Below are positions 11,077 to 62,745 of a stretch of 64,000 nt of DNA, in pieces. The first letter of the stretch is position 1; each line of letters begins with the position of its first letter. Where the stretch lies: positions 42,267 through 106,266 of the forward strand of contig JAJEHI010000048.1 in NCBI GenBank assembly GCA_022823775.1, in the 5' to 3' direction. A program made the translations under genes and the position numbers. Under the pieces are notes generated by a model. That model was not told the origin of the DNA and made no database searches. It was given only the letters and a program-made list of their open reading frames with translations. Source of the stretch: Defluviicoccus sp. GTDB taxonomy: Bacteria; Pseudomonadota; Alphaproteobacteria; MPNO01.

Positions 11077-11307
11077 ATGCTGGTATCCAAGTGGGGCAAC
11101 AGCCTCGCCGTCCGGCTGCCGAGGTCGATGGTCGACGGCCTCGATCTGAAGTCCGGAGACCGGCTGGAAATCGTCTCCGCCACGGCGGAACGGGTGGTGC
11201 TCGCGAAGGACCGGCGGCGGGCGCGAGCGGTCGAGCGGATGCGCGCGCGCGCCTTGCCGCTGCCGGCGGACTATGTCTTCGACCGCGATGACGCCAACCT
11301 CCGGTGA
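11077..11307 (+). CDS. vapB: AbrB/MazE/SpoVT-family antitoxin (VapB)
   Basis: MLVSKWGNSLAVRLPRSMVDGLDLKSGDRLEI is a classic SpoVT/AbrB swapped-hairpin antitoxin N-terminus. Its stop overlaps the vapC GTG start. Confidence 0.7.
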   Translation: MLVSKWGNSLAVRLPRSMVDGLDLKSGDRLEIVSATAERVVLAKDRRRARAVERMRARALPLPADYVFDRDDANLR

Positions 11308-11711
11308 GCGCTTTCCTGGACACGAACCTGCTGATCTACGCGCAGTCCGCCGACCCGAAGGGCGAGATCGCGAGACAGGCGATCCTGACCGGCGGAACGA
11401 TCAGCGTTCATGTGGTGAACGAGTTCAGCGCCGTGCTCCGCCGCAAGTTCCGCCTCGAGTGGCACGAGATCGCGGATGCGGTGGACGACGTGCGGGCCGC
11501 GCTGGATCCGGTTCGCCCGGTCGGCATCGACACCTGGACCGCCGCCGTTGCCCTTGCTCGGCAGCACCGTTTCGAATTCTACGACTCGCTGATCCTCGCC
11601 TCGGCGCTCGAAGCCGGCTGCGATACCCTGTTGACCGAGGACATGCAATCCGGCCGCCGCATCGAGGGCCTGACGATCGTCAACCCGTTCGATACCGCTC
11701 CGAAGTCGTAA
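11304..11711 (+). CDS. vapC: PIN-domain ribonuclease toxin (VapC)
   Basis: 135 aa with the conserved acidic PIN residues FLDTN, NEF, FYDS and TEDM. GTG start, 4-bp overlap with vapB. Confidence 0.8.
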   Translation: MSAFLDTNLLIYAQSADPKGEIARQAILTGGTISVHVVNEFSAVLRRKFRLEWHEIADAVDDVRAALDPVRPVGIDTWTAAVALARQHRFEFYDSLILASALEAGCDTLLTEDMQSGRRIEGLTIVNPFDTAPKS

Positions 11712-45026: not shown

Positions 45027-46649
45027 TCAGTAAATCCGGCGGATCGTCCTCAGCTGTCTCGCAATATCCGAAAACGCCGCCCGGAGCGTTTCGGGGTCCC
45101 GGTTTTCCAGGAAAACGTATGTTCCATCCGGTTTTTCCGCCTCGCTGGAGCACGCGCGCAGCGCCGTTCCCAGGGTCCCGGATACATTGTCCGGATGCAT
45201 CGCCGCGATGACGAAGATCTCGGTCCCGGCGGCCTTCGCGGCGTTACACGCCACGGCGCGATCGATGCCGACATCGTTGGTCTCGCAAGCCGGATCGTTA
45301 AGCCCGCACGGGTTGTCCTCTCCGTCCGTAAGCAGCACGATCGCTTTTCGGGTACCGGCGTTGCCCGAAGCGTCGGTGTCTACCGGATGGACGCCGCCGC
45401 CCCATGCATCCGTCCAGGAATGCGACAGCAGCCTTTGCCCCCACAGGACCCCGAGCGTGGAATAGGTCCGGAATCCCACCGGCGCGAGCGAGTCGATCGC
45501 CGCGCGGACCGCCGCGGCGTCGGATGTCAGCGGCAGAATGGATGGAATGACGGTGCCGTCATACGGCGATGTGCAGCCTCTCTGGGCGGACGTGCGGTCG
45601 TAGACCCCCCGCAGGTCGGCGGGGTCGTCGCCGTAACAGACCTGGTAGTTGAAGTTGTCGGGCAGCGGCGACTGCAGGCACTCGTACGCCACCCCCTGTA
45701 CCGACGGGAAGATCGCTTGAGCGAAAGGGTGCGACGACGGGGGGGCGAGCAAATCGGAGACGGCGGGCAGGGACGCATGATCCCCCGGCCCGGAGATCCG
45801 ATGCTCGTCCAGGCAGCCCTGCCAGGTCTCGTCGAATGTGGGCGGGAGCGTGTGGTCGACATCGAAAGCCGTGCAATTGCCCTCCGGTCGGCACGCGTAG
45901 GAGGCGGCATAGTTGCGGCTTTGCGGGTATTTCGCCCAACCGTCGGCTGCCCAGCCGGCCTGCATCGTTGCCGGCAGCCGGACCAGGATGTGCCACGGCA
46001 CCAGCCCCACCGCCACCCGGCTTTCTTCGCGCGGATCGAGAATGTCGACCAGGTCGAGGGCTGCCTGCCTTACGATATTCATCCGGCTGGGATCCTCGCC
46101 CCAGGCCGGAGAGCCATCCAGCCCGTCCCGCATCGACGCGCTGATGTCGATGGCAAGCACCACCTCGACGGCGTTCCTGACACTCTCCACCGCGCTCTCC
46201 CGCGCCACCGGACCCGGTCCGGAATAGCCGAACAGCCGTTCGGATATCGCCGTCCGCCCGATATCCGCCTGGACCGACGCGCCGACCGTTCCCGCCGTCC
46301 GGTCGATATCCAGCGTCACCGAGATATCCCCGGCCTCCAGATCGGGGTCGTTCGTGTTTCCCAGGACGTTCAGAACGGCATATTTTCGCGCGACGGCCAT
46401 AAGCCGTTCCTCCACGTCGCCGTCGGACATGGAGCTCGGCAACCCGCTCAGTTCCAGCGTCGCGGACATCGACACGGCGTCGGCCGCGCTCTTCAGGAGA
46501 TCGCGCCGATCGACGAGCCGATCATGATCGACGATCACGGCCGCGCCGCCCACCGTCATGATGACGACCCCGATGGCGACATAAGCGGTCGCCGCGGCGC
46601 GCCTGTTGCGAAGAAAGCGGCGAACGGGGCGGGTCGAATTCCGGAACAT
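45027..46649 (-). CDS. tadG: TadG-like Flp-pilus assembly protein with von Willebrand factor A domain
   Basis: The N-terminal Tad-like membrane anchor is RRAAATAYVAIGVVIMTVGGAAVIV and the vWA region is VVLAIDISASM...IVLLTDGEDN. Confidence 0.7.
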   Translation of the reverse strand: MFRNSTRPVRRFLRNRRAAATAYVAIGVVIMTVGGAAVIVDHDRLVDRRDLLKSAADAVSMSATLELSGLPSSMSDGDVEERLMAVARKYAVLNVLGNTNDPDLEAGDISVTLDIDRTAGTVGASVQADIGRTAISERLFGYSGPGPVARESAVESVRNAVEVVLAIDISASMRDGLDGSPAWGEDPSRMNIVRQAALDLVDILDPREESRVAVGLVPWHILVRLPATMQAGWAADGWAKYPQSRNYAASYACRPEGNCTAFDVDHTLPPTFDETWQGCLDEHRISGPGDHASLPAVSDLLAPPSSHPFAQAIFPSVQGVAYECLQSPLPDNFNYQVCYGDDPADLRGVYDRTSAQRGCTSPYDGTVIPSILPLTSDAAAVRAAIDSLAPVGFRTYSTLGVLWGQRLLSHSWTDAWGGGVHPVDTDASGNAGTRKAIVLLTDGEDNPCGLNDPACETNDVGIDRAVACNAAKAAGTEIFVIAAMHPDNVSGTLGTALRACSSEAEKPDGTYVFLENRDPETLRAAFSDIARQLRTIRRIY

Positions 46650-46837: not shown

Positions 46838-48952
46838 TCAATAGTAGTAGCCGCCAACCAGCGCCGGGGCGGGTTCGTCCCGCTCTTCCGGAGACCCGCC
46901 GGTCCGGACCAGCCGGGCCGTGACGATCACCACCAGCTCGAGGTCCTCCGATCGTATCGAGCGATGCCCGAACAGCGGTCCCAGCAACGGGATGTCCTTG
47001 AACACCGGGAGGCCCGCCTCCCGCGTGTCGGACGCGTTGCGGAACAGCCCGCCTATCACGATCGAGTCTCCGTCGCCCACTTCGACCGTCGTCTCCGCGC
47101 GGCGCACGTTGATCACCGGGATATTGACGCCCACCACCTGGACCGCCTGGTTCAGCGACGGCTCCGACACTTCGGGCCTGACCTTCAGCACGATCCTGCC
47201 GGCGTCTATGACCGTGGGGACGAAGTCGAGCAGGACGCCGTATTTCTTGTATTCGAACAGGATGACCCCGTCCTCGAACCCGGTCGGCAGCGGGTATTCG
47301 CCACCCGAGAAGAACGACGCCGCCTCGCCCGACACGGCGGTGAGGTTGGGCCTGGCCAGCACGTTCGCCGAGCCGGCCCTGGCAAGCGCGTCGATCATGC
47401 CCGAGATGCGCGTGTCCTTCGTATGCCTGCCGAAGAAGAGACCGGGGGAGGGCTGACCGTCGACGAGTGACGGAGCGAAGGCGCCGATCGCGCTTCCCGC
47501 GACCGACGGGACGCTCGCCAGCCGGCCGATCCGGAAGCCGAACACGTTGTCGCCCGGGGTCCGGAATGCCTCCCAATTGATCCCGAGGTCCTCGCTGAGC
47601 GAGCGCTGGACCTCGGCGATCTGGACTTCAAGGCTCACCTGCTGCGCGCCGGCCACACGCAGTTCGGTTTCGACGACGGTGTCCTTCGGCAGAGCCGCCG
47701 CCGCGAGCCGGAGGGCGCGTTCGGCGAGAGCGGCGGAGGCGACATCGCCCGACAGCGCTATTCCCCGCGCGACCCGCCTCGCCCGTACGCCGCGCAGATC
47801 GGGCTCTCCGGCCAGGTTCGCACGAACGGGTTCGAGGTCGAGCATGACGGACACGATCCAGTCCCGCACCCGACCGTCCTCTCCGAGCACCGCGACGGAG
47901 GTTCTGCCGACGCTCTTGCCGACGATGTACAGCACGTCGGGCGATAGCAGCTGAACGTCCGCCACCTCGGGCGCCGCCACCAGCAGCGAGGTCGCGCTGG
48001 AATCGAGCCCGAGGCGCCTGCTCTGCCCCAGCGAAAGGGTCATCGTCGCCGGCAGGGGGACGCCCGGCGTTCGGTCCGCGGCCGCCTCCGCCTCCGGGAC
48101 CGGCGGCGCCTCCCGCTCCGTTCCGGGACCCTGCGGGGAGGGCCGTTCCGCAATGCGAAGCAGGGCGCCCGTGGACCCCGGCAGCGCCGCTTCGCGGGCC
48201 GCGGGGCCGTCCCCTTCCCGCGCCGGCAGACGCATCGCGAGGCTCGGATGGACCGCACGCGCCGCGGCCTGGCGCCGCCGCTCCCGCCGCGCTTCCTCGA
48301 TCAGATGCCACAGCGAAGAACCGTCCTCGCCCAGCCAGAAGGACGGATCGTGCCGCGCGTGAACCTCCGCCGCGCTCTCTTCCTTCCCGGCCGCCAGCAG
48401 CATGCGCACGAAATTCGCGGTGATCCCCGGATGGCCCGAAGACAGGCGGAGAGCCCGGCGGTATTCCGCCTCGGCCGTCTCGTAATCGCCTTCGAGGCTG
48501 GCGAGGACGCCGATGCCGTTGGCGACCCAGGCCGCCGAGGGCCCCCGTCCCGCCGATTCGCGCGCGCTCCCGAAGTGCCGCCGCGCGTCGTCCAGCGTGC
48601 CTTGGGCGAGCGCCGTCCGCCCCGCGCCGAGGAGCGCTTCCGCCTTGATGGCCGGCGCCTCCTCCGCCAGCGCCGCGGCCCCGAGGAAATAGTCCTTCGC
48701 GGCCGGCAGGTCGTTGTCGAGGGACGCGATATATGCCAGCCCGAGGAGCGGTTCGGGAGCCTCGTCGAAGCGTTCGGCCAGGGAGCGGTATAGCCTGCGG
48801 GCGACCGACGGCTGGCCCGCGGTAAAGGCGGCGGCCGCGACGGACAGGTTGTTTTCAAGAAGATCCTGGCGGCCGGCGGGATCGTCCGACGACGGGCCGG
48901 TCGCGCATGAGGCGACCGCCGCGACCGAGATGAAAACGGCAGCGGCGCGCAT
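46838..48952 (-). CDS. cpaC: CpaC/RcpA-type secretin fused to an N-terminal TadD-like TPR domain; lipoprotein signal
   Basis: Real start MRAAAVFISVAAVASC at 48952. The first ~270 aa are TPR-like. These are followed by the pilus-formation N-domain (LSLGQSRRLGLDSS...VLYIVGKSVGRTSV) and the secretin core (ARPNLTAVSGEAASFFSGGEYP...FKDIPLLGPLFG). Confidence 0.75.
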   Translation of the reverse strand: MRAAAVFISVAAVASCATGPSSDDPAGRQDLLENNLSVAAAAFTAGQPSVARRLYRSLAERFDEAPEPLLGLAYIASLDNDLPAAKDYFLGAAALAEEAPAIKAEALLGAGRTALAQGTLDDARRHFGSARESAGRGPSAAWVANGIGVLASLEGDYETAEAEYRRALRLSSGHPGITANFVRMLLAAGKEESAAEVHARHDPSFWLGEDGSSLWHLIEEARRERRRQAAARAVHPSLAMRLPAREGDGPAAREAALPGSTGALLRIAERPSPQGPGTEREAPPVPEAEAAADRTPGVPLPATMTLSLGQSRRLGLDSSATSLLVAAPEVADVQLLSPDVLYIVGKSVGRTSVAVLGEDGRVRDWIVSVMLDLEPVRANLAGEPDLRGVRARRVARGIALSGDVASAALAERALRLAAAALPKDTVVETELRVAGAQQVSLEVQIAEVQRSLSEDLGINWEAFRTPGDNVFGFRIGRLASVPSVAGSAIGAFAPSLVDGQPSPGLFFGRHTKDTRISGMIDALARAGSANVLARPNLTAVSGEAASFFSGGEYPLPTGFEDGVILFEYKKYGVLLDFVPTVIDAGRIVLKVRPEVSEPSLNQAVQVVGVNIPVINVRRAETTVEVGDGDSIVIGGLFRNASDTREAGLPVFKDIPLLGPLFGHRSIRSEDLELVVIVTARLVRTGGSPEERDEPAPALVGGYYY

Positions 48953-49254
48953 GCGCCGGACGAGATGTCGACATGGTTGCCGGATCACGAGCATTTCCAA
49001 TCCGGCCCCGTTGTCAGCGAACGAAGCACGACCGCTCCATCTTCCGTCAAGATTTCGAACCCGGGCGAAGAATGAACGCGGTTCCCGAATTCGATCCTAT
49101 CGATCCAGAGACCGCGAACCTGGGTGTATCCCCGCGATCCGGACGCTCGATCCGGCACCGCCGCAACCGGCGAACCCATAAGCGAACTTGGCAGAATATG
49201 CCTAACACGATATGAATTGTGAACAGAAGTGAGATATTTTGTCGCCCTCGCCCC

Positions 49255-49788: not shown

Positions 49789-50919
49789 ATGGCGGCGTCT
49801 TCCAAGGCTCACTATGCGCGCGGGTTCGCGGCCGACGCCCGGACCGAGCGGGCATTGCGCGCCGGACTTGCCGGCCGCGACGCGAAGGTCCAGCGAGGAC
49901 GCCTGGAAATCGCGCTCCGCACTCTGGCGGCCGAGCCCGCCTCCAGTCTGGTGTTCGTCGACCTCGACGGCAATTCGGACCCGGAAACCGCGGCCAGGCG
50001 ACTGACCGAAGTTTGCCCTTTCGAGACTGCGGTGGTCGCGATCGGTTCCACCGATTCGGCGCGGTTCGGCCACGCGCTCCTGCAACAGGGGATGGCGGAC
50101 TATCTGGTCAAGCCGCTGTCGGCCGCGGTCGTGCGCGAGGCGGTCGCCGCCCTCAGCGGGGAGGCGCCCGAGCATCTCTACGCGGGAGACGTCATCGCTT
50201 TCGCGGGAAGCCCCGGCAGCGGCGTCTCCACCCTGGTCGCCGCGGTCGCGCACGCCGCCGCCGCCGACGGCCGCACCGCTTCCGTCGTCGACCTCGACCC
50301 GGTTTGCGGCAAGCTCTCCGCGCGGCTCGGCGTCGAACCCGGGGACGGCCTGCGCCCGCTCCTTGCTTCGATCGGCGCCGGCGCGGCCGATGACCCGGAC
50401 CCTCATATCGACCCCGACAGGATCGACCGAATATCGACGCCGGCGGCTTCCGGCATTTCGCTGATCGCTTACCCGAAGGCCGAGGCGCCGCCGGAAAGCG
50501 CCGACGCGGCGGCGCTCTCCGCCCTCTTCAGGCATCTCGCCAACCGGACCCATCTCGTGCTGGCGACCGGGATGCCGGATCCCGAGACGCAGCTTCTGCT
50601 GATGCGGGACGCCGATGCTCGGGTTCTGGTCTACGAACCGACGATAGCGAGCGTCGGCGCCGTGGTGCGTCGGTTGGCGCGGCTCGGCCCCGACCGGCCC
50701 GCCACGCTGGTCCAGTGCTCCACGCGGGGTCGCCGTTACACGCTGTCCTCCGCCCATGTCCGCTACGCGTTCGGCGACCGGCGCCCGGACGTCGTGCTTC
50801 CCTTCGATCCGGCGCTCCACGCGGCCGCCACCGGCAAGCCATCGGGCCGCCCGGGAAAGGCCTACCGCAAGGCGCTGCGCCAGGCGATAGAGCTGGTCGG
50901 ACAAGATCATCGTTCGTGA
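49789..50919 (+). CDS. cpaE: CpaE/TadZ-family pilus assembly protein (receiver-like N-domain + MinD/ParA-like domain), paralogue 1
   Basis: The receiver-like part is LVFVDLDG...ADYLVKPL. The deviant Walker A, IAFAGSPGSGVSTLVAA, lacks the conserved lysines. Confidence 0.7.
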   Translation: MAASSKAHYARGFAADARTERALRAGLAGRDAKVQRGRLEIALRTLAAEPASSLVFVDLDGNSDPETAARRLTEVCPFETAVVAIGSTDSARFGHALLQQGMADYLVKPLSAAVVREAVAALSGEAPEHLYAGDVIAFAGSPGSGVSTLVAAVAHAAAADGRTASVVDLDPVCGKLSARLGVEPGDGLRPLLASIGAGAADDPDPHIDPDRIDRISTPAASGISLIAYPKAEAPPESADAAALSALFRHLANRTHLVLATGMPDPETQLLLMRDADARVLVYEPTIASVGAVVRRLARLGPDRPATLVQCSTRGRRYTLSSAHVRYAFGDRRPDVVLPFDPALHAAATGKPSGRPGKAYRKALRQAIELVGQDHRS

Positions 50920-53110: not shown

Positions 53111-54612
53111 ATGACTCTCGACGCTTCTCCGAACGGCCGCGATCGTCCGGCCGGGCCTCCCCCGGAACGCGCGCCCGACTTCGACCTCGATTTCGACGTC
53201 GATTTCGAGGCCCTGCTGCGGGCCGGGCTTCCGGACGATCCGGGCGAGGGCGAGGACGCCACCGCCGCCGACCTGGCGAGCGCTCTCTCCGCCGGCCCCT
53301 TGGACGATCCATCTCCGCCGCCGGCCGATCCGGACCTGCCCGACCTCGCGGACCTTTCCGGCATCGCGGCGGACCTGCCGGGTCCGGGCGCCGCGATCGA
53401 CGCCGGCAGCGATGAGGACGCGGACGACACGGCTTCCGAGTCGACGCCCGAAGGTCCCGCCGCCGCGCTCGCCTTCGCGGCCGATGCGGAGACCGAGAAC
53501 GCCCTGCGCGAGGGTCTGATGCATTTCGAAGGGGCGATGCCGGACTGCGACGATCCCCAGGTTTGGCCGGGCGGCCTGCGAGCGGCCGTCGCGGCGCTCG
53601 CCGACGGGCATTCCTCCGGTCTCGTCATCGTCGATATCGACGGTATCGCCTACCCGTCGGGCGCCATTCACGAGCTTGCCGAGGTCTGCGAGATCGGAAC
53701 CGTCGTCATCGCGGTCGGCTCGAACGGCACCGCCCGTTTCAGCCGCGAAATATTGCTTGCCGGGGTCAGCGACTATCTGGTGAAGCCGCTCACCCCGCAG
53801 ACGGTGAGGGAGGCGACACGCCGCGCGGCCGCGTCCCGGGCGGACGCCCCCGCGAGGGGATGCGTCGCCGGGTTCGCCGGCACCGGCGGCAGCGGCGCGA
53901 CCACCCTGGCGGTGGCGACCGCGCTCCATGCGGCGGAGACCGGCCGTTACGTTTCTGTGCTCGATCTGAACCGGACCGTCCCCGTCGCGGCGCTTCTGCT
54001 CGACGTGCAGCCGGCGGCCGGGCTGGAACAGGTCATCGAGGTCGCCGGCGACGCGCCGCTCGAGGCAAACACGCTGGACGGCGTCCGGGCGCAGCGCTCC
54101 GAGCGGGTATCGATCTACGCCTATCGCTGGTCTCCCGTGCTGCCCCCGGCGCCGTCGGGCCCGGCGCTCGCCCGCCTGCTGGGCGAACTGAAGAGCCGGT
54201 CCCAGCTCGTGCTCGTCGACGGGATCGACGATCCGCCGACCCAATTCGCCCTGCTGTCCGAGGTCGATGTCCCCGTTCTGGTGGCGGAACCGACGGCGGA
54301 CGGCGCAACCCGCGCGGCCCGTATGCTGGAGCTTCTCCCCGGCGACGCCCCGGCCGTCGCGGTGAAGAACCACACGCGCGCGTTCCGGCCGGACGCGGGG
54401 GCGCGGGCGCTCGTCGACGCCGGGATGGAGGCCGCGCCGGACATCCTGGTTCTGTACCTTCCGTCGCTGCCGGAAATCGCCGACCGGGGCTGGCCGCGCG
54501 GCAGGCTTCCCCGCCGCTTGCGCAAGCCCGTCGCGAGCCTTCTCGAACGGATCCTCGCATCGGCCCGCCTCGCCCGTGTCGTCCCGGACGGGCGCCTCGC
54601 GGAGGCGGCGTG

Positions 54613-54613
<1 letters not shown>
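53111..54613 (+). CDS. cpaE: CpaE/TadZ-family protein, paralogue 2, with a ~140-aa acidic/Pro-rich N-terminal extension
   Basis: The receiver-like region is LVIVDIDG...SDYLVKPL. The MinD-like domain has the Walker A-like GFAGTGGSGATTLAVA, again without lysine. Confidence 0.7.
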
Positions 54614-56006
<1,393 letters not shown>

Positions 56007-56010
<4 letters not shown>

Positions 56011-56966
56011 CGCACTTCCTGATCGTCGTGGGCACGGCCCTGGTGGCGACGCTGCCCGGGGTCGCCTTCCTGCTGCTGCTGTGGAACCGCGACCGGCGGT
56101 TGCGCGGCCGGCTTCAGGGCGCGTCCGCTTCGCATATCGACGAGGCGGTCTCCGAGGACGATGCGACCGAGGCCATCGTCTTTCGCTCCTCGGCCGGATC
56201 GCGGTCGGCTCGCCTCCGGCGCGCGATCGAGAGCCGGTATCCCCTGCTCGACGCCCGGCGGGCGGTTCCGCGCGCGGTTCTCGCGGGCGGCGCGGCGGCG
56301 GCCGGCCTGTGGGTTTCGATGTGGTTCCTGAAGATCCCCTCCGGCTGGTGGACGATGCCCCTCGTCGGGTTGGGCGGCGTGGGCGGCATCTGGTACGCGC
56401 TGTCGTGGTTTCACTCGCGGCAGGCGACCGAGTTCACCCGCCAGTTCCCCGAAGTCATCGACCAGATCGTGCGGCTATCCGCGGCGGGGCTGCCCGCGCT
56501 TGAGGCGATCCCTGTCGCCGCCGAAGACGCCCGGGCGCCCGTCAAGCCGGTGCTGAACGCCGTCTGCGACGGGCTTAGCGGCGGGCTCGATCCCGACACC
56601 GCTCTTCGAACTGTCGCCACCCGCGTCCGCCTCGCGGACTTCACCTTGTTCGCCGCGGTGATACTGCTGCAGCGCCGCGCCGGCGGCGGTATCTCCGCCG
56701 CGTTCGCCACCCTCTCCCGCACGCTTCGCGATCGTCGCAACACCGCGCTGAAGGCGCAGACATCCACCGCGCAGACCCGCCTGACCCTTATGGTGCTGTC
56801 CGTGATGCCGGTGGTGATGCTCAGCATCCAGAAGTTCATCTCGCCCCAATCCGCCGCGATCCTCTTCGAGACCGAACGGGGGACGACCCTCCTGCATTGG
56901 GGCGTCGGCCTGATCGTCGCCGGCCTTCTGGTCGCGAAGGCTATCGCTTCGCGCGTCGAGCAATAG
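56007..56966 (+). CDS. tadB: TadB (T2SS-F-domain inner-membrane platform protein)
   Basis: GTG start overlapping the cpaF stop (GTGA); 319 aa with a T2SSF domain. Confidence 0.8.
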
Positions 56967-56983
56967 GGAAGGGCGGGCCTCTC

Positions 56984-57955
56984 ATGCAGAACGCCTTCAT
57001 ACCGGTCGCCGGACTCGTCCTGGGCGCCGCCTACGTGCTGCTTCTCGCGCCGCTGATTATCCGGGAAACGCGGCGGGCGCAGCAAATGGACAGGCGGTTG
57101 ACCGCGTTGCGCGATTCCCCGTTCGGCTACGCCGCCGGACACGCGGCCCGCGACGGCGGCCGGGGCAAGGCCCTGATCAGGGCGCTCGGCCTGACGGCCA
57201 TGCGTGTGGCGTCGATGCTGGTCCCGATCGGCGCGGCCGAGCGCGAGAAACTCACCCGCATGCTCCGCGCGGGCGGCTTCGGGCAGCACGAAGCGCTCTC
57301 CGTTTTCCTCTCCGCGAAGCTCGGCGGCGCGTTCCTCCTCGCCATCGGCGCCGGGCTCTGGGCGACCTCTTCGGAGACGGTCGGACAGCACGCGTTTCTC
57401 GCCCTGTTCGCCGCGCTGGCGGGCTTCGTGATCGGCGGTGTCATCCCGGAATACGTGCTGCGTGCGCTGGTGGCCCGAAGGCTGCAACGGATGACCGCGG
57501 TCCTGCCCGACGCGCTGGACATGCTGGTGATGTGCCTCGAATCCGGCCTGACGGCGGAACGGGGAATCCTGACGGTCGCCGACACGCTGGCGCCCATCGA
57601 GCCCAATCTCGCCAGGGAGTTCCAGCAGATCGAGGCGGAGCTGCGGGTCGCGTCGGACCGCCGCGCGGCGCTCACCGAGTATTACCGGCGCACGGAGATC
57701 GACGGTCTGCGCGACCTCGTGATGGCGCTCATACAGGGCGACCGGTACGGCACCCCGCTGTCCCAGTCGATGAAGAACATCGCGGCCGACGAACGGATGC
57801 AAAAGGCGGCGCGCATCGCGACCCAGGCCGAGCGCCTGCCGGTCCTGATGACCCTGCCGATGATCATTCTCGTGGTTCCCGGAACCATGCTCCTGGTGGC
57901 GGGCCCCGCCGTTCTGGGCGCGCTTACCGGGCTGGCAAAAATGAGTGGCGGATAG
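56984..57955 (+). CDS. tadC: TadC (T2SS-F-domain inner-membrane platform protein)
   Basis: Start MQNAFIPVAGLVLGAAYVLL; 323 aa with a T2SSF domain. Confidence 0.8.
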   Translation: MQNAFIPVAGLVLGAAYVLLLAPLIIRETRRAQQMDRRLTALRDSPFGYAAGHAARDGGRGKALIRALGLTAMRVASMLVPIGAAEREKLTRMLRAGGFGQHEALSVFLSAKLGGAFLLAIGAGLWATSSETVGQHAFLALFAALAGFVIGGVIPEYVLRALVARRLQRMTAVLPDALDMLVMCLESGLTAERGILTVADTLAPIEPNLAREFQQIEAELRVASDRRAALTEYYRRTEIDGLRDLVMALIQGDRYGTPLSQSMKNIAADERMQKAARIATQAERLPVLMTLPMIILVVPGTMLLVAGPAVLGALTGLAKMSGG

Positions 57956-57956
57956 G

Positions 57957-58943
57957 ATGTACAAGACGCGCGGTCGCTCTTCCGCCGGACGGGCGGTTTC
58001 CCTGCTTGCCACTTTGGCCGCGGGCCTCACGTGGCTCGCCTGCGGCGATCTCCGCGCCGAGGAGCCGATCCTGCCGATCCCCGAAAATGTCGACGTCGAT
58101 CCGGCCAAGGTCGAGCTGGGCCGAAAGCTGTTCCACGACCCGATATTGTCGAAGGACGGCACGATCTCCTGCGCTAGCTGCCACGATCTGGCGGGCGGCG
58201 GCGATGACGGCCGCAAGATTTCGCTCGGCGTCGACGACAAGCCGGGAATGGTCAACTCGCCCACCGTGTTCAACGCGGGCATGAACTTCAAGCAGTTCTG
58301 GGACGGCCGCGCGAGCACGCTCGAGCATCAGATCGACGGTCCGGTGCAAACCGCCTTCGAGATGGGCAGTCTCTGGCCGGACGTCGTCGCCAAGCTCTAC
58401 CGCGACGGCGCCTATCCCAAGCTCTTCAAGAAGAGCTATCCCGACGGGATCAATCGCAAGAACGTCAAAAACGTCATCGCCGAGTTCGTAAGGTCCCTCA
58501 ACACTCCCAACAGCCGCTTCGACCGGTGGCTGAAAGGCGACAAGAACGCTCTCAACGCGCAGGAAAAGCGCGGCTACGCATTGTTCAAGGACTATGGCTG
58601 CTCGTCGTGCCACCAGGGCGCGAACGTCGGCGGGAACATGTTCCAGGTGTTCGGCGTCCTGAACGACTACTTCAAGAAACGCGGCAACATCACGGAAGCC
58701 GATCTGGGCCGCTACAACATCACCGGAAACGAAGAAGACCGGCACGCCTTCAAGGTTCCCAGCCTGCGGATGGCGGCGATGACGGCACCCTATCTGCATG
58801 ACGGAAACGCGGCCACGCTCCGCGACGCCGTCGACGCGATGTTCGAATTTCAACTGGGGCGCGAAGCCCCCGACAAGGACAAGGAAGCCATCGTGGCGTT
58901 CATCGAGACGCTGGTGGGCGAATCCAAGGAGCTATCGAAATGA
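57957..58943 (+). CDS. ccpA: Di-haem cytochrome c peroxidase (CcpA/MauG family), periplasmic
   Basis: Two CxxCH haem motifs (CASCHD, CSSCHQG), a signal peptide, and the conserved FKVPSLRMAAMTAPYLHDG. The track begins at a GTG at 57945; the ATG at 57957 is preferred. Confidence 0.85.
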   Translation: MYKTRGRSSAGRAVSLLATLAAGLTWLACGDLRAEEPILPIPENVDVDPAKVELGRKLFHDPILSKDGTISCASCHDLAGGGDDGRKISLGVDDKPGMVNSPTVFNAGMNFKQFWDGRASTLEHQIDGPVQTAFEMGSLWPDVVAKLYRDGAYPKLFKKSYPDGINRKNVKNVIAEFVRSLNTPNSRFDRWLKGDKNALNAQEKRGYALFKDYGCSSCHQGANVGGNMFQVFGVLNDYFKKRGNITEADLGRYNITGNEEDRHAFKVPSLRMAAMTAPYLHDGNAATLRDAVDAMFEFQLGREAPDKDKEAIVAFIETLVGESKELSK

Positions 58944-60733
58944 GGTCTGGCGCAGTCATTCTCGGCATTGCCGTCTCCGCCGTCCTGCTGGCCGTCGCGG
59001 GCGGTCTTTATGTGCTGGCGGGCAATAACAGCGGAGACGGTTATCGCAAGGCGATCGATCTCGTGCGGCAGATCCAGCTGCTGTCGTCGGAATGGAGCAT
59101 GGAAGTCACGCGCGTGAAATCCGATCAGTTCGCCGATTTCGACTCGCTGGCCGCCTTCCTGCCGCGCATGGCGCGGCTGAAGGACGAGCTTGCCGACACG
59201 GCCCAGCGCATCCCCCAACTTCCCGACCGGATCGCCAGCGACATGCAGGCCTATCTCAACGCGATCGAAGCGAAGGAAGAGCGCATAGAACGCTTCAAGA
59301 CGGGCTACGCCGTGGTGCGCAACTCCAACCGCTACCTGCCGCTGGCCGCGACCAACGTCCTGCAGCAGGCGCAGAACTCGAGGGACGACGCGCTGGTCCG
59401 GAATATTTCGAGCCTGATCCGGGATGTGAACCTCTATCTCGCCACGCCGACGGACACGTCCCAGTCCCGGCTGACCGCCGAGATCAAGAAGCTCCGCGAA
59501 TCCAGCGTCTCCTATCCGCCTCCGCTCGCCAACGCGCTGGCCAATCTGTTCTCCCACGCCGAGGTGCTTGTGGCCAAGCAGGGGCCGACGGAGGAGCTGT
59601 TCAAGAGGGCCACGTCCGGCGAAGTCTCCGACCTGACGGAGCAGCTGAGCAGCAATCTGCAGTTCGAGCTCGGCAAGAAGGTGCTCCTCGCGACCTATTA
59701 CGACCGGGGCATTCTCGTGGTGTTCGCCGCGCTGATCCTGTTCTGGATCCTGCTCGCGCTGCAGCAGCGGATTCGCGGCGGCTCCGCCGTGACCCGGGTC
59801 GCTTCCCGCCCCTCGGCGATCGAGATCGCACCCGCGCCCGCCGGCGCCGGGGAGGCCGTCGTCGCGGCGGAGGAGACGCATCCGGCGCCGGTGCGGCCCG
59901 CGCCCGTCGAGGCGGAAGCCATCCGTCTGCCCGACGAACCCGAATCCCTGCCCGTCGCGGCGGCGGCTTCGTCCCCGGAACCGAGCGCCGAATCCATCCT
60001 GATGCAAGGGTTCGTCGTCAAATGCGTGGCCGGAATCATGGCCGCCTCGGCCGACGAAATCGCCGGCCGCATGGAGTATCTGCGCCGAACCCAGAACAGG
60101 ATCCAGGACGCCTTCCGAAACAGCGACGGTATCGCGGAAACGTCCGATGGAACGGATGTCGACGAAGAGATCGAAACGATCTCCGCCATCGCGCTGAGCG
60201 TCCGCCAGAGGATGAACGGCATCGCCGATCTCGCGAAGCGGCTCGACTCCTATTCCAACGGTCACGCCAACGGGGCGGACCGCGGAATGATCGACCTCAA
60301 CGCCTGTGTCGAGAACGTCATCGAGACCGCCGGTGCCGCGAACCGGGCGACGGTCGTGAGGAACCTGGGCGACATCCCGGAGATATTCGCCTCCAGGACC
60401 GAATTTCAGCTGCTCCTGTCGGAACTGATCGACAACTCGATGGTCGCGGTCGAGGGACTCGACGACAGAAAGGGCATCATCAAGATCGATACCGCGCGGA
60501 AGAACGACGAAATCCTGATCACCGTCATCGACAATGGCGACGGTATCGCCCCCGACAAGCGCGCGAACATCTTCAAGCCGTTCTACACGTCCCGCGACGG
60601 GGCGATGGGCATCGGCCTGACCCTCGCCGGTCACCTGGTCAAGAAATACGAGGGGGTCATCAAGATCAATTCGTTGCCCGGCCAGGGGACGGTGGCGCGC
60701 GTCACGCTGCCGGCCGGCGTGTCGGGGGCGTAG
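58940..60733 (+). CDS. Membrane sensor histidine-kinase-like protein (two TM helices, periplasmic domain, C-terminal HATPase_c); no canonical H-box recognised
   Basis: N-box LLLSELIDNSMVA, G1 DNGDGI, F FKPFYT, G2 GMGIGL. TM1 AVILGIAVSAVLLAVAGGLYV and TM2 ILVVFAALILFWILLAL. The ATG overlaps the ccp stop. Confidence 0.65.
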   Translation: MRSGAVILGIAVSAVLLAVAGGLYVLAGNNSGDGYRKAIDLVRQIQLLSSEWSMEVTRVKSDQFADFDSLAAFLPRMARLKDELADTAQRIPQLPDRIASDMQAYLNAIEAKEERIERFKTGYAVVRNSNRYLPLAATNVLQQAQNSRDDALVRNISSLIRDVNLYLATPTDTSQSRLTAEIKKLRESSVSYPPPLANALANLFSHAEVLVAKQGPTEELFKRATSGEVSDLTEQLSSNLQFELGKKVLLATYYDRGILVVFAALILFWILLALQQRIRGGSAVTRVASRPSAIEIAPAPAGAGEAVVAAEETHPAPVRPAPVEAEAIRLPDEPESLPVAAAASSPEPSAESILMQGFVVKCVAGIMAASADEIAGRMEYLRRTQNRIQDAFRNSDGIAETSDGTDVDEEIETISAIALSVRQRMNGIADLAKRLDSYSNGHANGADRGMIDLNACVENVIETAGAANRATVVRNLGDIPEIFASRTEFQLLLSELIDNSMVAVEGLDDRKGIIKIDTARKNDEILITVIDNGDGIAPDKRANIFKPFYTSRDGAMGIGLTLAGHLVKKYEGVIKINSLPGQGTVARVTLPAGVSGA

Positions 60734-60857: not shown

Positions 60858-62177
60858 ATGACTTCGCGGGGAGATCGAAACAGCAGCCTGCGGATGCAGC
60901 TGGTGTCCAACGCGCTCCTGAGCGTCGCGCTGCCGATCCTGATCGTCGGCGGATTGACCTTCTTTCTGCTCGCGTATCATCTCGACATCATCGAGACGAG
61001 CTTCGCGCGGAGCCGGGATGCGGTAACCAACGACATCGCGCGGACCGACCTCGTGTCGCGGGCGACAACCACCGCGAGCCAGATCGATACTTTCCTGGTC
61101 AGCCGTATCACCGAAGCCAAGGCCTGGGCGACGTCGAAGGCCGTCGTCGAGGCCGCCCGGTCGGCCGGCGCCAGGCACGCGGCCGAGGGGTTCGTCAAGA
61201 CCCCCGCCGCCGAGGTCGAAAGGAGATTCCGCATCGAAAAGAGCCTGGGCCTCTGGCCGGAAGCCGATTCCTTCCTGCGCCAGCAGGTCGCGGCGTCGCC
61301 TTACTTCGCGGAACTCTTCTTTACCGACAGCAACGGTTTCAACGTCGCGCTCACCAACCCCACCAGCGATTTCATCCAGTCCGACGAGGAATGGTGGAAG
61401 CGAGCCTGGAGCCAGGGGATTTCCGTGGGCGAGGTCGAGTACGACGACTCCGCCGGGGTCTGGTCCGTGGAAATCTCGGTCCGGATAGACAACCCGACCG
61501 GGAAAAAGGCGCTCGGCGTCATGAAGACGGTGCTCGCCATCGAGCCCATTCAGAACATCGCCGACAGGGCGGCCCAGTCCGTTCCGGGCGGCCGCGTCCA
61601 GGTCGCGACGGGGCGCGGCGCGCTGATCGCCGAGACGGCCTCCGGCCACGCCCGGGAACGAATTATGAATGGCGAAGTCAACGTGCAGGAACAGGGCGAA
61701 CCGTCGGTGCGGGCCGGTTTCGGCGGTGAACAGACGGGGTTCGCCACCGACCGGGAATGGCTCACGGGGTACGCCCGGACCGGCGGCCGCGAGACCTATG
61801 CTTCCGCCGTCGGCCGGTTCGCGGGTTTCGACTGGATCGTGATCGTCCAGAAACCGATCGCCGCCATCCACGAGCCGATCACGGCGCTTCGCGGTATCGA
61901 GGACGCGCTGCGCGATTGGCGCCTCATTCTCGCGCTGGCCCTGGGCGGCATGGCGTTGCTGAGTTCGGTGCTGGCGATTTCCCTCGCCGTCGGGGCCGCC
62001 CGGCGTTACGCGAACGCCCTGGGCGCGGTCACCGAGATGGCCGAACGTTCGGCCCGGGGCGAACGGGTCAGTCCCGCGGTCATCCGCAACCCCCAGGAGA
62101 TCGTTCGCGTGAACGACGCCGTCCATCGCCTGGTTCAGGTGTTCGCCGGCGTCCGGGAGCGACCGCGAGCGACGTAG
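60858..62177 (+). CDS. Cache-domain sensor with two TM helices and a C-terminal HAMP domain, lacking any output domain
   Basis: TM1 LLSVALPILIVGGLTFFLLA, a ~300-aa periplasmic Cache-like region, TM2 LILALALGGMALLSSVLAISLAV, then HAMP-like NALGAVTEMAERSARGERVSPAVIRNPQEIVRVNDAVHRLVQVF, followed by the stop. Confidence 0.6.
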   Translation: MTSRGDRNSSLRMQLVSNALLSVALPILIVGGLTFFLLAYHLDIIETSFARSRDAVTNDIARTDLVSRATTTASQIDTFLVSRITEAKAWATSKAVVEAARSAGARHAAEGFVKTPAAEVERRFRIEKSLGLWPEADSFLRQQVAASPYFAELFFTDSNGFNVALTNPTSDFIQSDEEWWKRAWSQGISVGEVEYDDSAGVWSVEISVRIDNPTGKKALGVMKTVLAIEPIQNIADRAAQSVPGGRVQVATGRGALIAETASGHARERIMNGEVNVQEQGEPSVRAGFGGEQTGFATDREWLTGYARTGGRETYASAVGRFAGFDWIVIVQKPIAAIHEPITALRGIEDALRDWRLILALALGGMALLSSVLAISLAVGAARRYANALGAVTEMAERSARGERVSPAVIRNPQEIVRVNDAVHRLVQVFAGVRERPRAT

Positions 62178-62262: not shown

Positions 62263-62745
62263 GTGGAGAGCCGTTCGATGGCGAACGCAACCGCATGGAT
62301 CGTCTGGCTGGCGGGGTGGGCCGCATGCGGCCTGTTCGTCGCCGCCGCGGTCAGCGACCTTCGGACCCGCCAGGTGTCGAACGCGATACCCCTGCTGCTG
62401 CTCGGGCTTTTCGCGGTGTACGCGGCGGCCGGCGCGGTCCGGCCCGCAACGTCGCTCTGGCAGCATCTGGCGATAGGCGCCGTACTGCTCGCCGCCGGTT
62501 TCGCGCTCTACACGACCGGTCGCTTCGGCGGGGCCGATGCGAAGCTGATCGCCGTGGCGGGGTTGTGGGCCGGTCCGAACGACCTGGCGGCGTTCCTGTT
62601 CGTTCTGGGCGGGTGCGCTTTGTTGCTGAGCCTGTATGCCTTGCTGCCTCACGCGGGGGCGCGGCGTCTGCGGTCGGAACTTCCCTTCGCCCTGGCGATC
62701 GCGCCGCCGAGCCTGGCGGTCATCGTCCCGCGCGCGCTGCCATGA
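62263..62745 (+). CDS. cpaA: Prepilin peptidase CpaA/TadV (A24 family)
   Basis: 160 aa polytopic membrane protein; the catalytic Asp contexts are AAVSDLRTRQVSN and GGADAKL. Confidence 0.75.
   Translation: MESRSMANATAWIVWLAGWAACGLFVAAAVSDLRTRQVSNAIPLLLLGLFAVYAAAGAVRPATSLWQHLAIGAVLLAAGFALYTTGRFGGADAKLIAVAGLWAGPNDLAAFLFVLGGCALLLSLYALLPHAGARRLRSELPFALAIAPPSLAVIVPRALP

Follow-up and report, generated by a model that had tools for sequence, protein, structure and literature searches.

The window analysed here comprises 64,000 nucleotides of Defluviicoccus sp. (contig JAJEHI010000048.1, positions 42,267 to 106,266) and carries a gene for a histidine-kinase-like protein in which no phospho-acceptor histidine could be recognized. 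This protein, which will be referred to as HK*, is encoded directly downstream of a cytochrome c peroxidase gene. Together with a gene for a dCache-like protein, the two form a three-gene insert in a Tad/Flp pilus cluster. The features of the peroxidase and HK* genes are as follows, in positions of the window and, within HK*, also in residues:

57945..58943, + strand: periplasmic di-haem cytochrome c peroxidase (Pfam CCP_MauG, E 1.7e-56), its stop codon overlapping the HK* start
58940..60733, + strand: HK*, a histidine-kinase-like DAHL protein without phospho-acceptor histidine (open reading frame (ORF) of 597 amino acids, ATG start)
59042..59662, + strand: periplasmic DAHL sensor domain (residues 35-241; Pfam DAHL, E 5.6e-29, above the curated cut-off)
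59780..59980, + strand: disordered linker rich in Pro, Ala and Glu between the second transmembrane helix and the hairpin (residues 281-347; predicted local distance difference test score (pLDDT) <50)
59987..60121, + strand: DHp-like helix 1 (residues 350-394; helix in the AlphaFold2 model; degenerate H-box ASA-D372-EIAGRM)
60053..60055, + strand: codon of Asp372, aligned with the phospho-acceptor histidine of canonical kinases by phmmer and hhalign
60158..60268, + strand: DHp-like helix 2 (residues 407-443; helix in the AlphaFold2 model; R434 and L435 nearly invariant)
60398..60715, + strand: CA domain, HATPase_c (residues 487-592; Pfam E 3.3e-19, likewise above the curated cut-off; N, G1, F and G2 boxes intact)

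The ORF, already called by the first-pass annotation of this DNA, is real, an exact reading frame on the plus strand. Its ATG is preceded at 8 nt by AAGGAG and overlaps the peroxidase stop codon as ATGA, and a protein identical to HK* (P0001) was found on a 170-kb metagenome scaffold. Two transmembrane helices, at residues ~5-27 and ~254-276, bracket the DAHL domain, and HK* thereby shows the layout of a DAHL receptor, namely a bimodular all-helical periplasmic domain (PF19443) between two membrane helices. Sequence searches found no solved relatives of this domain. The AlphaFold2 model, calculated as a monomer from an alignment of 77 homologues (mean pLDDT 77.7), places in order a transmembrane helix, an all-helical periplasmic domain (pLDDT ~90), a transmembrane helix, the disordered stretch 281-347, two long helices and an alpha/beta domain. 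The linker (A18 P11 E9) varies from 48 to 106 amino acids among close homologues. In a representative of 1036 amino acids with the same two Pfam domains (P0157) it extends over several hundred residues, apparently ~550.

The structure prediction that the first-pass annotation had recommended for the region upstream of the N-box clearly yielded a DHp-like hairpin of residues 350-394 and 407-443. The DHp-CA part of CckA superposes on the model with 2.2 A over 221 residues, helix 2 aligns with helix 2 of CckA in phmmer as well as in hhalign, and the structures nearest to the model are ordinary histidine kinases. Judged from the model, the dimerisation region is an ordinary DHp hairpin that has diverged in sequence past the reach of the HisKA profile. 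An unusual dimerisation domain, one of the three options raised earlier, was not borne out; the region folds as a normal hairpin superposing on CckA, and it is the H-box that is degenerate.

The earlier observation that no H-box precedes the N-box, and that the only histidine there lies in the motif SYSNGHANG, agrees with the profile searches and with an inventory of all histidines. None of the Pfam profiles HisKA, HisKA_2, HisKA_3, HWE_HK and H-kinase_dim matched HK* even at E<=1, and the searches proposed by the first-pass annotation thus ended without a HisKA-family match carrying a conserved histidine. The NCBIfam kinase models that matched, among them AtoS, VirA-like, EspC and PrsK, begin to align no earlier than residue 407 and cover helix 2 of the hairpin plus the ATPase domain. 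HK* possesses four histidines, H206 in the periplasm, H314 in the disordered linker, H442 in SYSNGHANG and H565 in the ATPase domain, and residues 315-441 contain none at all. H442 is replaced by Pro in most homologues. None of the four is usable as an acceptor.

Pairwise phmmer alignments with four canonical kinases (P0203, P0251, P0205, P0278) all placed the phospho-histidine on Asp372, pairing ASA-D-EIAGRM of HK* with AGxA-H-EINNPL and matching Glu373 and Ile374 to the canonical Glu and Ile/Leu. Profile-profile alignment (hhalign) gave the same residue, at low confidence in helix 1, and the helix lengths in the model fit Asp372 as the former histidine position. Ala369, to which an alignment by eye had pointed, was overruled by the four phmmer alignments and hhalign. 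In an alignment of 232 sequences, combining close homologues, representatives at 50% identity and the genes from 79 genome loci, histidine occurs in column 372 in 0 of 232 relatives. Glu and Asp predominate in this column, alongside some Ser, Arg, Ala and Gly, and the highest histidine share of any column in residues 348-445 is 39%. A run of ~100 residues without histidine is not statistically unusual as such; the finding gains its significance from homology, because the phospho-histidine of canonical kinases aligns to Asp372, a position that is never histidine in the 232 sequences.

A search of 1.84 billion representative proteins with residues 343-597 as query pointed the same way, as the H-box motif is absent from the first ~55 hits and HEINNP- or HELRTP-bearing canonical kinases come up below ~100 bits. 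The nearest relatives that carry the histidine are HisKA kinases of the HEINNP type (CckA, ZraS, AtoS, FixL). HK* clearly descends from histidine kinases, by its sequence from HisKA-type sensor kinases of this HEINNP class; it can no longer act as a conventional histidine kinase or take part in a His-to-Asp phosphorelay. The option of an atypical or HWE-like kinase finds no signal for HWE, HisKA_2 or HisKA_3, and the nearest canonical relatives are ordinary. Among the three earlier options, a GHKL ATPase that is not a kinase is best supported, with the correction that HK* does not belong to another GHKL class, given its histidine-kinase descent and the retention of the whole DHp-CA module.

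The ATP-binding site presents the opposite picture to the degenerate H-box. The N, G1, F and G2 boxes, which had been described as clear, are confirmed by the HATPase_c match, and N499, D531, G533, G535, F545, G557, G559 and L560 do not vary, either among the 77 aligned homologues or in 128 sequences. Pairwise ratios of nonsynonymous to synonymous substitution rates (dN/dS) between HK* and five close loci, calculated region by region with the row of locus L003 excluded, were 0.12-0.29 for the DAHL part, 0.14-0.41 for helix 1, 0.10-0.26 for helix 2, 0.09-0.35 for the CA domain and 0.38-0.95 for the linker. The values of 0.10-0.41 in the hairpin indicate that this degenerate element is under purifying selection, with the linker close to neutral. 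The gene is thus a functional one with an intact ATP pocket, and we infer from the conserved motifs that HK* binds ATP.

HK* belongs to a sizeable family. A word-indexed search recovered 633 homologues, and the best 120 of these, with ~580-636 amino acids, all combine DAHL and HATPase_c without HisKA (precomputed Pfam); the few that are named are labelled "ATP-binding protein" by NCBI. An exhaustive search at E<=1e-30 gave 44 representative clusters (50% identity). DAHL and HATPase_c were found in nine of ten sampled representatives and a HisKA match in none, which suggests that the His-less DHp-CA module is essentially always joined to a DAHL domain. Helix 1 is weakly conserved among distant relatives. 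Scanning one genome per GTDB species, we recovered 79 related loci, all from metagenome-assembled genomes, in Alphaproteobacteria (Thalassobaculaceae, Defluviicoccus, Rhodospirillales), Gammaproteobacteria (Azotimanducaceae, Pseudomonadales, Immundisolibacterales, Ectothiorhodospiraceae), Binatia and one member of the Thermodesulfobacteriota. DAHL relatives were also sought on plasmids of cultured bacteria, where no match was found.

When the defining features of the known kinase classes were compared, HK* showed the hairpin and CA boxes of canonical HisKA kinases and lacked their H-box histidine and, among the ORFs scanned, an adjacent response regulator. HK* does not fit the HWE/HisKA_2 kinases (defined by profile match, conserved histidine and W-x-E in the N-box region), the HisKA_3 kinases of the NarX or DesK type (profile match with conserved histidine) or the CheA type (H-kinase_dim and a separate histidine-bearing HPt P1 domain). 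Likewise, the SpoIIAB/RsbW type does not apply, as HATPase_c_2 scored 17.8 bits with a cut-off of 27.4 and a DHp hairpin is present. What HK* does show is a kinase fold in which the acceptor histidine is substituted throughout the family. HK* is assigned to the pseudo-histidine kinases and to no named kinase subfamily, because the histidine that defines these was tested for and is not present.

The gene 5' of HK* is the most constant element of its surroundings. The peroxidase gene was found directly upstream in ~78 of 80 loci (tblastn with the window genes), and ORF clustering across all loci for a conserved cytoplasmic partner revealed nothing universal besides it. The peroxidase is the more conserved of the two, being 69-89% identical across loci compared to 33-90% for HK*. 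The 4-nt overlap of peroxidase stop and HK* start recurs in 45 of 78 loci, and in 75 of 78 the gap does not exceed 86 nt. By this arrangement HK* is probably translationally coupled to the peroxidase. The best PDB match of the enzyme is 9qdt (1.5e-88), followed by the Nitrosomonas europaea peroxidase 1iqc (3e-73) and the Pseudomonas, Geobacter and Shewanella enzymes (~1e-60); matches to MbnH-like 6e1c (5e-31) and MauG (1e-20) are far weaker. It has two CXXCH haem motifs, is nearer to peroxidases than to MauG or MbnH, and retains the aligned QFWDGRA and P..EM motifs and the Met of AVDAM. Sequence comparison clearly points to a genuine bacterial cytochrome c peroxidase. A MauG/MbnH-type enzyme modifying the DAHL domain, as the top NCBIfam names might have implied, was set aside as the leading interpretation, since true peroxidases resemble the protein far more and the region of the Met ligand is retained.

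Genes for the Tad machine lie on both sides of the insert. Those that bear on the function of HK*, together with the third gene of the insert, are:

49789-50919, + strand: TadZ/CpaE-like paralogue with the same receiver features as the following protein (PDB matches to CpaE receiver-like domains)
53111..54613, + strand: CpaE/TadZ-like protein with a receiver domain, candidate docking partner (PDB matches to 4myr and 4n0p)
54613-56010, + strand: CpaF ATPase (precomputed Pfam T2SSE/T2SSF on the identical contig)
56007-56966, + strand: TadB (precomputed Pfam T2SSE/T2SSF on the identical contig)
56984-57955, + strand: TadC (precomputed Pfam T2SSE/T2SSF on the identical contig)
60858..62177, + strand: dCache-like accessory protein (439 amino acids: transmembrane helix, dCache-like periplasmic domain, transmembrane helix, HAMP-like tail)
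62278..62745, + strand: prepilin peptidase (Peptidase_A24, Pfam E 6e-15)
from ~62784 past the end of the window: RcpC (gene table of the identical contig)

On the identical scaffold the order is secretin, TadZ/CpaE-like paralogue, TadE-like genes, an ORF of 79 amino acids, the second TadZ/CpaE-like gene, CpaF, TadB, TadC, peroxidase, HK*, dCache protein, prepilin peptidase, RcpC and a TPR protein. By eye the 79-amino-acid ORF resembles an Flp pilin. The CpaF, TadB and TadC genes (54613..57955) are conserved across HK* loci (tblastn), and the module lies among Tad genes in most alphaproteobacterial loci, in Binatia and in some gammaproteobacterial loci, the orders differing. In Binatia, for example, the order is TPR, peroxidase, HK*, two TadE-like genes, a 595-amino-acid protein (vWA-like by eye) and secretin. 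Promoter and terminator counts between 52 and 64 kb are no higher than in shuffled sequence, which fits one operon and is not evidence for one. No response regulator or HPt gene was detected among the window ORFs scanned with Pfam, a subset of the called ORFs; within 10 kb of HK* on the identical contig there is no stand-alone response regulator, and the conserved neighbourhood of HK* holds no HPt-like gene.

A receiver-like domain does, nevertheless, stand at the N-terminus of both TadZ/CpaE-like proteins of the window. In 45 of 45 aligned HK*-linked loci it retains the acceptor Asp (L-V-I-V-D-I-D-G), the Lys (Y-L-V-K-P) and the Ser with which beta-4 ends; of the CpaE receiver-like domains with solved structures, 4myr and 4n0p carry Glu in place of the acceptor Asp, and 4dn6 and 4dad do not have the conserved Lys. 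The MinD-like Walker A motif of both paralogues looks degenerate, without Lys (GSPGSGVST and GTGGSGATT). The DHp hairpin of histidine kinases is a natural docking surface for receiver domains, and DivL of Caulobacter crescentus, the pseudo-histidine kinase studied in most detail, acts through its binding to DivK~P. Because a DHp hairpin docks receivers and DivL binds DivK~P, we propose the TadZ/CpaE receiver as a candidate target of HK*.

The interpretation to which we give an even chance is that HK* acts as an ATP-binding pseudokinase, coupling a periplasmic peroxidase/DAHL sensor to the Tad machine by protein contacts and without a His~P relay. In the periplasm, the DAHL domain and the co-translated peroxidase would jointly serve as a peroxide or redox co-sensor, comparable to TorT with TorS, and the dCache/HAMP-like protein may supply a second input in the lineage of the window. 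As the disordered linker varies in length, a rigid helical piston is the less likely way for the signal to cross from the membrane to the hairpin; changed oligomerisation or clustering would be more probable. On the cytoplasmic side, the ATP- or ADP-loaded DHp-CA module would work through protein-protein contact, its most plausible target being the TadZ/CpaE receiver domain of the same operon by analogy with DivL and DivK~P, and assembly or placement of the Tad pilus might be tuned as a result. The contact between peroxidase and DAHL domain, the receiver as target and the nature of the physiological signal are all inferred. A more far-reaching proposal, which we consider improbable, is that peroxidase and DAHL form a general periplasmic peroxide/redox module from Campylobacter to marine symbionts, and that the ATP-loaded His-less DHp-CA controls or phosphorylates the TadZ/CpaE receiver, gating Tad on host oxidants.

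Several observations weigh against a contact-only pseudokinase coupled to the Tad machine. Boxes N, G1, F and G2 are perfectly conserved, as would be expected of an active phosphotransferase. Column 356 is histidine in 83 of 215 relatives (39%), and this residue, Gln in HK* itself, could be an alternative acceptor in the relatives that carry it. Canonical kinases hold the Thr or Asn of the HisKA phosphatase motif at the His+4 position, which is Gly in HK*; the canonical phosphatase motif is gone as well. The model is a monomer with a predicted template modelling score (pTM) of 0.41, and every sequence of the family stems from uncultured organisms. Finally, the Azotimanducaceae/Pseudomonadales loci have no Tad genes within 10 kb of the module, which argues that Tad is not its universal output.

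The strongest competitor of the pseudokinase, somewhat unlikely and still to be taken seriously, holds that HK* is an active protein kinase of a non-canonical kind, which would phosphorylate either a Ser, Thr or Tyr of its own or of some Tad component, or a His of a separate protein. Parallels for non-canonical acceptors exist in SpoIIAB/RsbW, mitochondrial PDK/BCKDK, plant phytochromes and subfamily-2 ethylene receptors, and in the P4 domain of CheA with P1. The intact ATP site would suit such an activity. However, no Ser, Thr or Tyr column of helix 1 is conserved throughout the family, the score for HATPase_c_2, the profile of Ser-kinase anti-sigma factors, stays below its cut-off, an HPt-like gene is missing both from the window ORFs scanned and from the conserved neighbourhood, and the nearest structures are those of ordinary histidine kinases.

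We regard it as rather unlikely that HK* is instead a dedicated nucleotide-stimulated phosphatase or sink for TadZ/CpaE receivers that acetyl phosphate or a kinase encoded elsewhere has phosphorylated. EnvZ and NtrB mutants without the histidine reportedly retain phosphatase activity, hairpin and CA domain are kept under purifying selection, the TadZ/CpaE receivers retain Asp, Ser and Lys, and the His+4 residue is often Thr or Ser in distant family members. Nevertheless, HK* and its close relatives have Gly, Ala or Asp at His+4 and not the Thr or Asn of the HisKA motif. Phosphorylation of these receivers is itself hypothetical, and the solved CpaE domains are non-canonical (two with a Glu acceptor, two without Lys). 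TadZ receiver-like domains are generally regarded as atypical, with a presumed role in protein-protein contacts (bioRxiv 10.64898/2026.07.08.737194).

The two remaining explanations are effectively excluded. A normal autophosphorylating histidine kinase, with an H-box missed by the profiles or a histidine elsewhere, could draw on column 356, which lies early in helix 1, but Gln356, the His-free stretch 315-441, the profile failures at E<=1 and an aligned position that is never histidine in the family make it highly improbable. A decaying, non-functional relic, least probable of all, would account for the lost catalytic histidine and the weak conservation of helix 1 in distant relatives, but not for intact ORFs in hundreds of genomes of several phyla, dN/dS well below 1 in the folded parts, invariant ATP motifs and translational coupling to a conserved neighbour.

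Comparison with characterized proteins places the pseudokinase further. To our knowledge, only a few pseudo-histidine kinases, such as DivL and RcsD, have been described. DivL has Tyr at the histidine position, cytoplasmic PAS sensors and a role in the cell cycle, whereas HK* has Asp or Glu at this position in its family, a periplasmic DAHL domain, a disordered linker, a peroxidase neighbour, a Tad context and fully conserved ATP boxes; specific sequence kinship between the two is lacking (E 1e-4, CA region only). RcsD and RetS are kinase-like proteins that work without autophosphorylating; RcsD has lost its ATP boxes and carries an HPt domain, and RetS keeps its histidine, in contrast to HK*, where the ATP boxes are kept, the histidine is gone and neither HPt nor receiver domain is present. 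The HEINNP-class kinases (CckA, ZraS, AtoS, NtrB, FixL) are the closest relatives in sequence and structure (NCBIfam AtoS 2e-24; PDB ZraS 2e-11, CckA 6e-11) and share hairpin length and CA boxes. HK* differs from them by A-D-E-I-A-G-R-M in place of A-H-E-I-N-N-P-L, by the absence of HAMP or PAS before the DHp and by having no cognate response regulator gene among the ORFs scanned. Like HK*, the kinase of PprA-PprB from Pseudomonas aeruginosa is encoded in or next to a Tad/Flp cluster; PprAB, however, forms a canonical two-component system whose regulator binds DNA, and no such regulator was found among the neighbourhood ORFs scanned. TorT, in contrast to the peroxidase, is a periplasmic binding protein and not a haem enzyme, and TorS is a canonical hybrid kinase with its histidine; LuxQ-LuxP is a similar co-sensor system.

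The closest parallel to the gene pair itself is DocA-DocB (Cj0020c/Tlp10) of Campylobacter jejuni, compared here by published descriptions. docA, encoding a putative cytochrome c peroxidase, lies immediately 5' of the docB/Tlp10 chemoreceptor gene; DocA makes no contribution to H2O2 resistance, and docA and docB are both colonisation determinants (PMC3156733). The ligand-binding domain of Tlp10 is of the DAHL type (PMC9303924). Both pairs have a peroxidase gene directly upstream of a DAHL-receptor gene, and they differ in output, a methyl-accepting chemotaxis domain in DocB/Tlp10 compared to a His-less kinase module in HK*. The requirement of DocA for colonisation without a role in H2O2 resistance suggests a signalling function. 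The peroxidase-DAHL linkage common to both systems suggests that such peroxidases are co-sensors and not detoxifying enzymes.

Loss of the histidine alone has precedent. It is the combination with peroxidase-DAHL coupling, an intact ATP site, placement in Tad clusters and canonical-looking TadZ receivers that defines a testable signalling module. A family of more than 600 sequences over several phyla in which the acceptor histidine is lost and every ATP-binding residue kept poses a puzzle for two-component signalling, namely what role ATP plays in it. The phosphorylatable-looking TadZ/CpaE receivers in Tad operons offer a testable route from oxidant sensing to adhesion in host-associated bacteria. 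Should the more far-reaching proposal of a general peroxidase-DAHL module with a His-independent output hold, periplasmic signals would reach a type IV filament machine by a new path that does without the His-Asp relay.

The genomes carrying the family are marine and belong to several phyla. Many of their isolate names (RHO, APA, COS, IRC, SB06xx, Langseth; loci L002-L080) recall marine-sponge microbiome series, and Azotimanducaceae have been mentioned in Arctic sponges (PMC12625764). The sponge-like names together with lineages spanning phyla suggest a habitat-linked peroxidase-HK* module that is shared horizontally, its sponge origin being putative. Some genomes contain two or three diverged copies of the pair (L002 and L009 on the same contig CBDDOM010000002.1; L004 and L007; L006 and L015; L025, L029 and L061). 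Such copies are, for example, 83% and 63% identical to HK* of the window, and most adjoin Tad genes.

The accessory gene downstream of HK* is restricted to the closer alphaproteobacterial and some gammaproteobacterial loci. Its match to dCache_1 is weak (1.1e-6, below the Pfam cut-off), and the HAMP assignment of its tail was made by eye, as Pfam calls none. A C-terminal segment of ~50 amino acids, ARRYAxALGAVTEMAERSARGE...PEEIVRVNDAVHRL, is common to 17 loci. The protein looks like a sensor without an output domain, standing beside a kinase-like protein without HAMP and without the histidine. In the Azotimanducaceae/Pseudomonadales loci (e.g., L030), HK* is followed by a 399-amino-acid transmembrane/coiled-coil protein, and housekeeping genes flank the module. 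The 399-amino-acid protein (L030, 11674-12873, + strand) has an N-terminal transmembrane helix, a C-terminal coiled coil and no Pfam match, and homologues occur in 22 gammaproteobacterial loci.

Two further proteins of the Tad region gave no Pfam match. A 540-amino-acid ORF (45027-46649, - strand; no match at 1e-5) with gene-like codon GC adjoins the Tad secretin gene (46838-49096, - strand). A 650-amino-acid protein downstream of RcpC, at ~64585-66537 past the end of the window (estimated from L001 15646-17598), is kept in 22 alphaproteobacterial Tad loci containing HK*. The remaining genes of the window encode metabolic enzymes and TRAP transporters. Among them, a PIN-domain gene (11292-11711, + strand; E 5.6e-14), probably the toxin of a toxin-antitoxin pair, is surrounded by genes for a hydantoinase, Rieske oxygenases, a gamma-glutamyltranspeptidase, an amidohydrolase and TRAP transporters.

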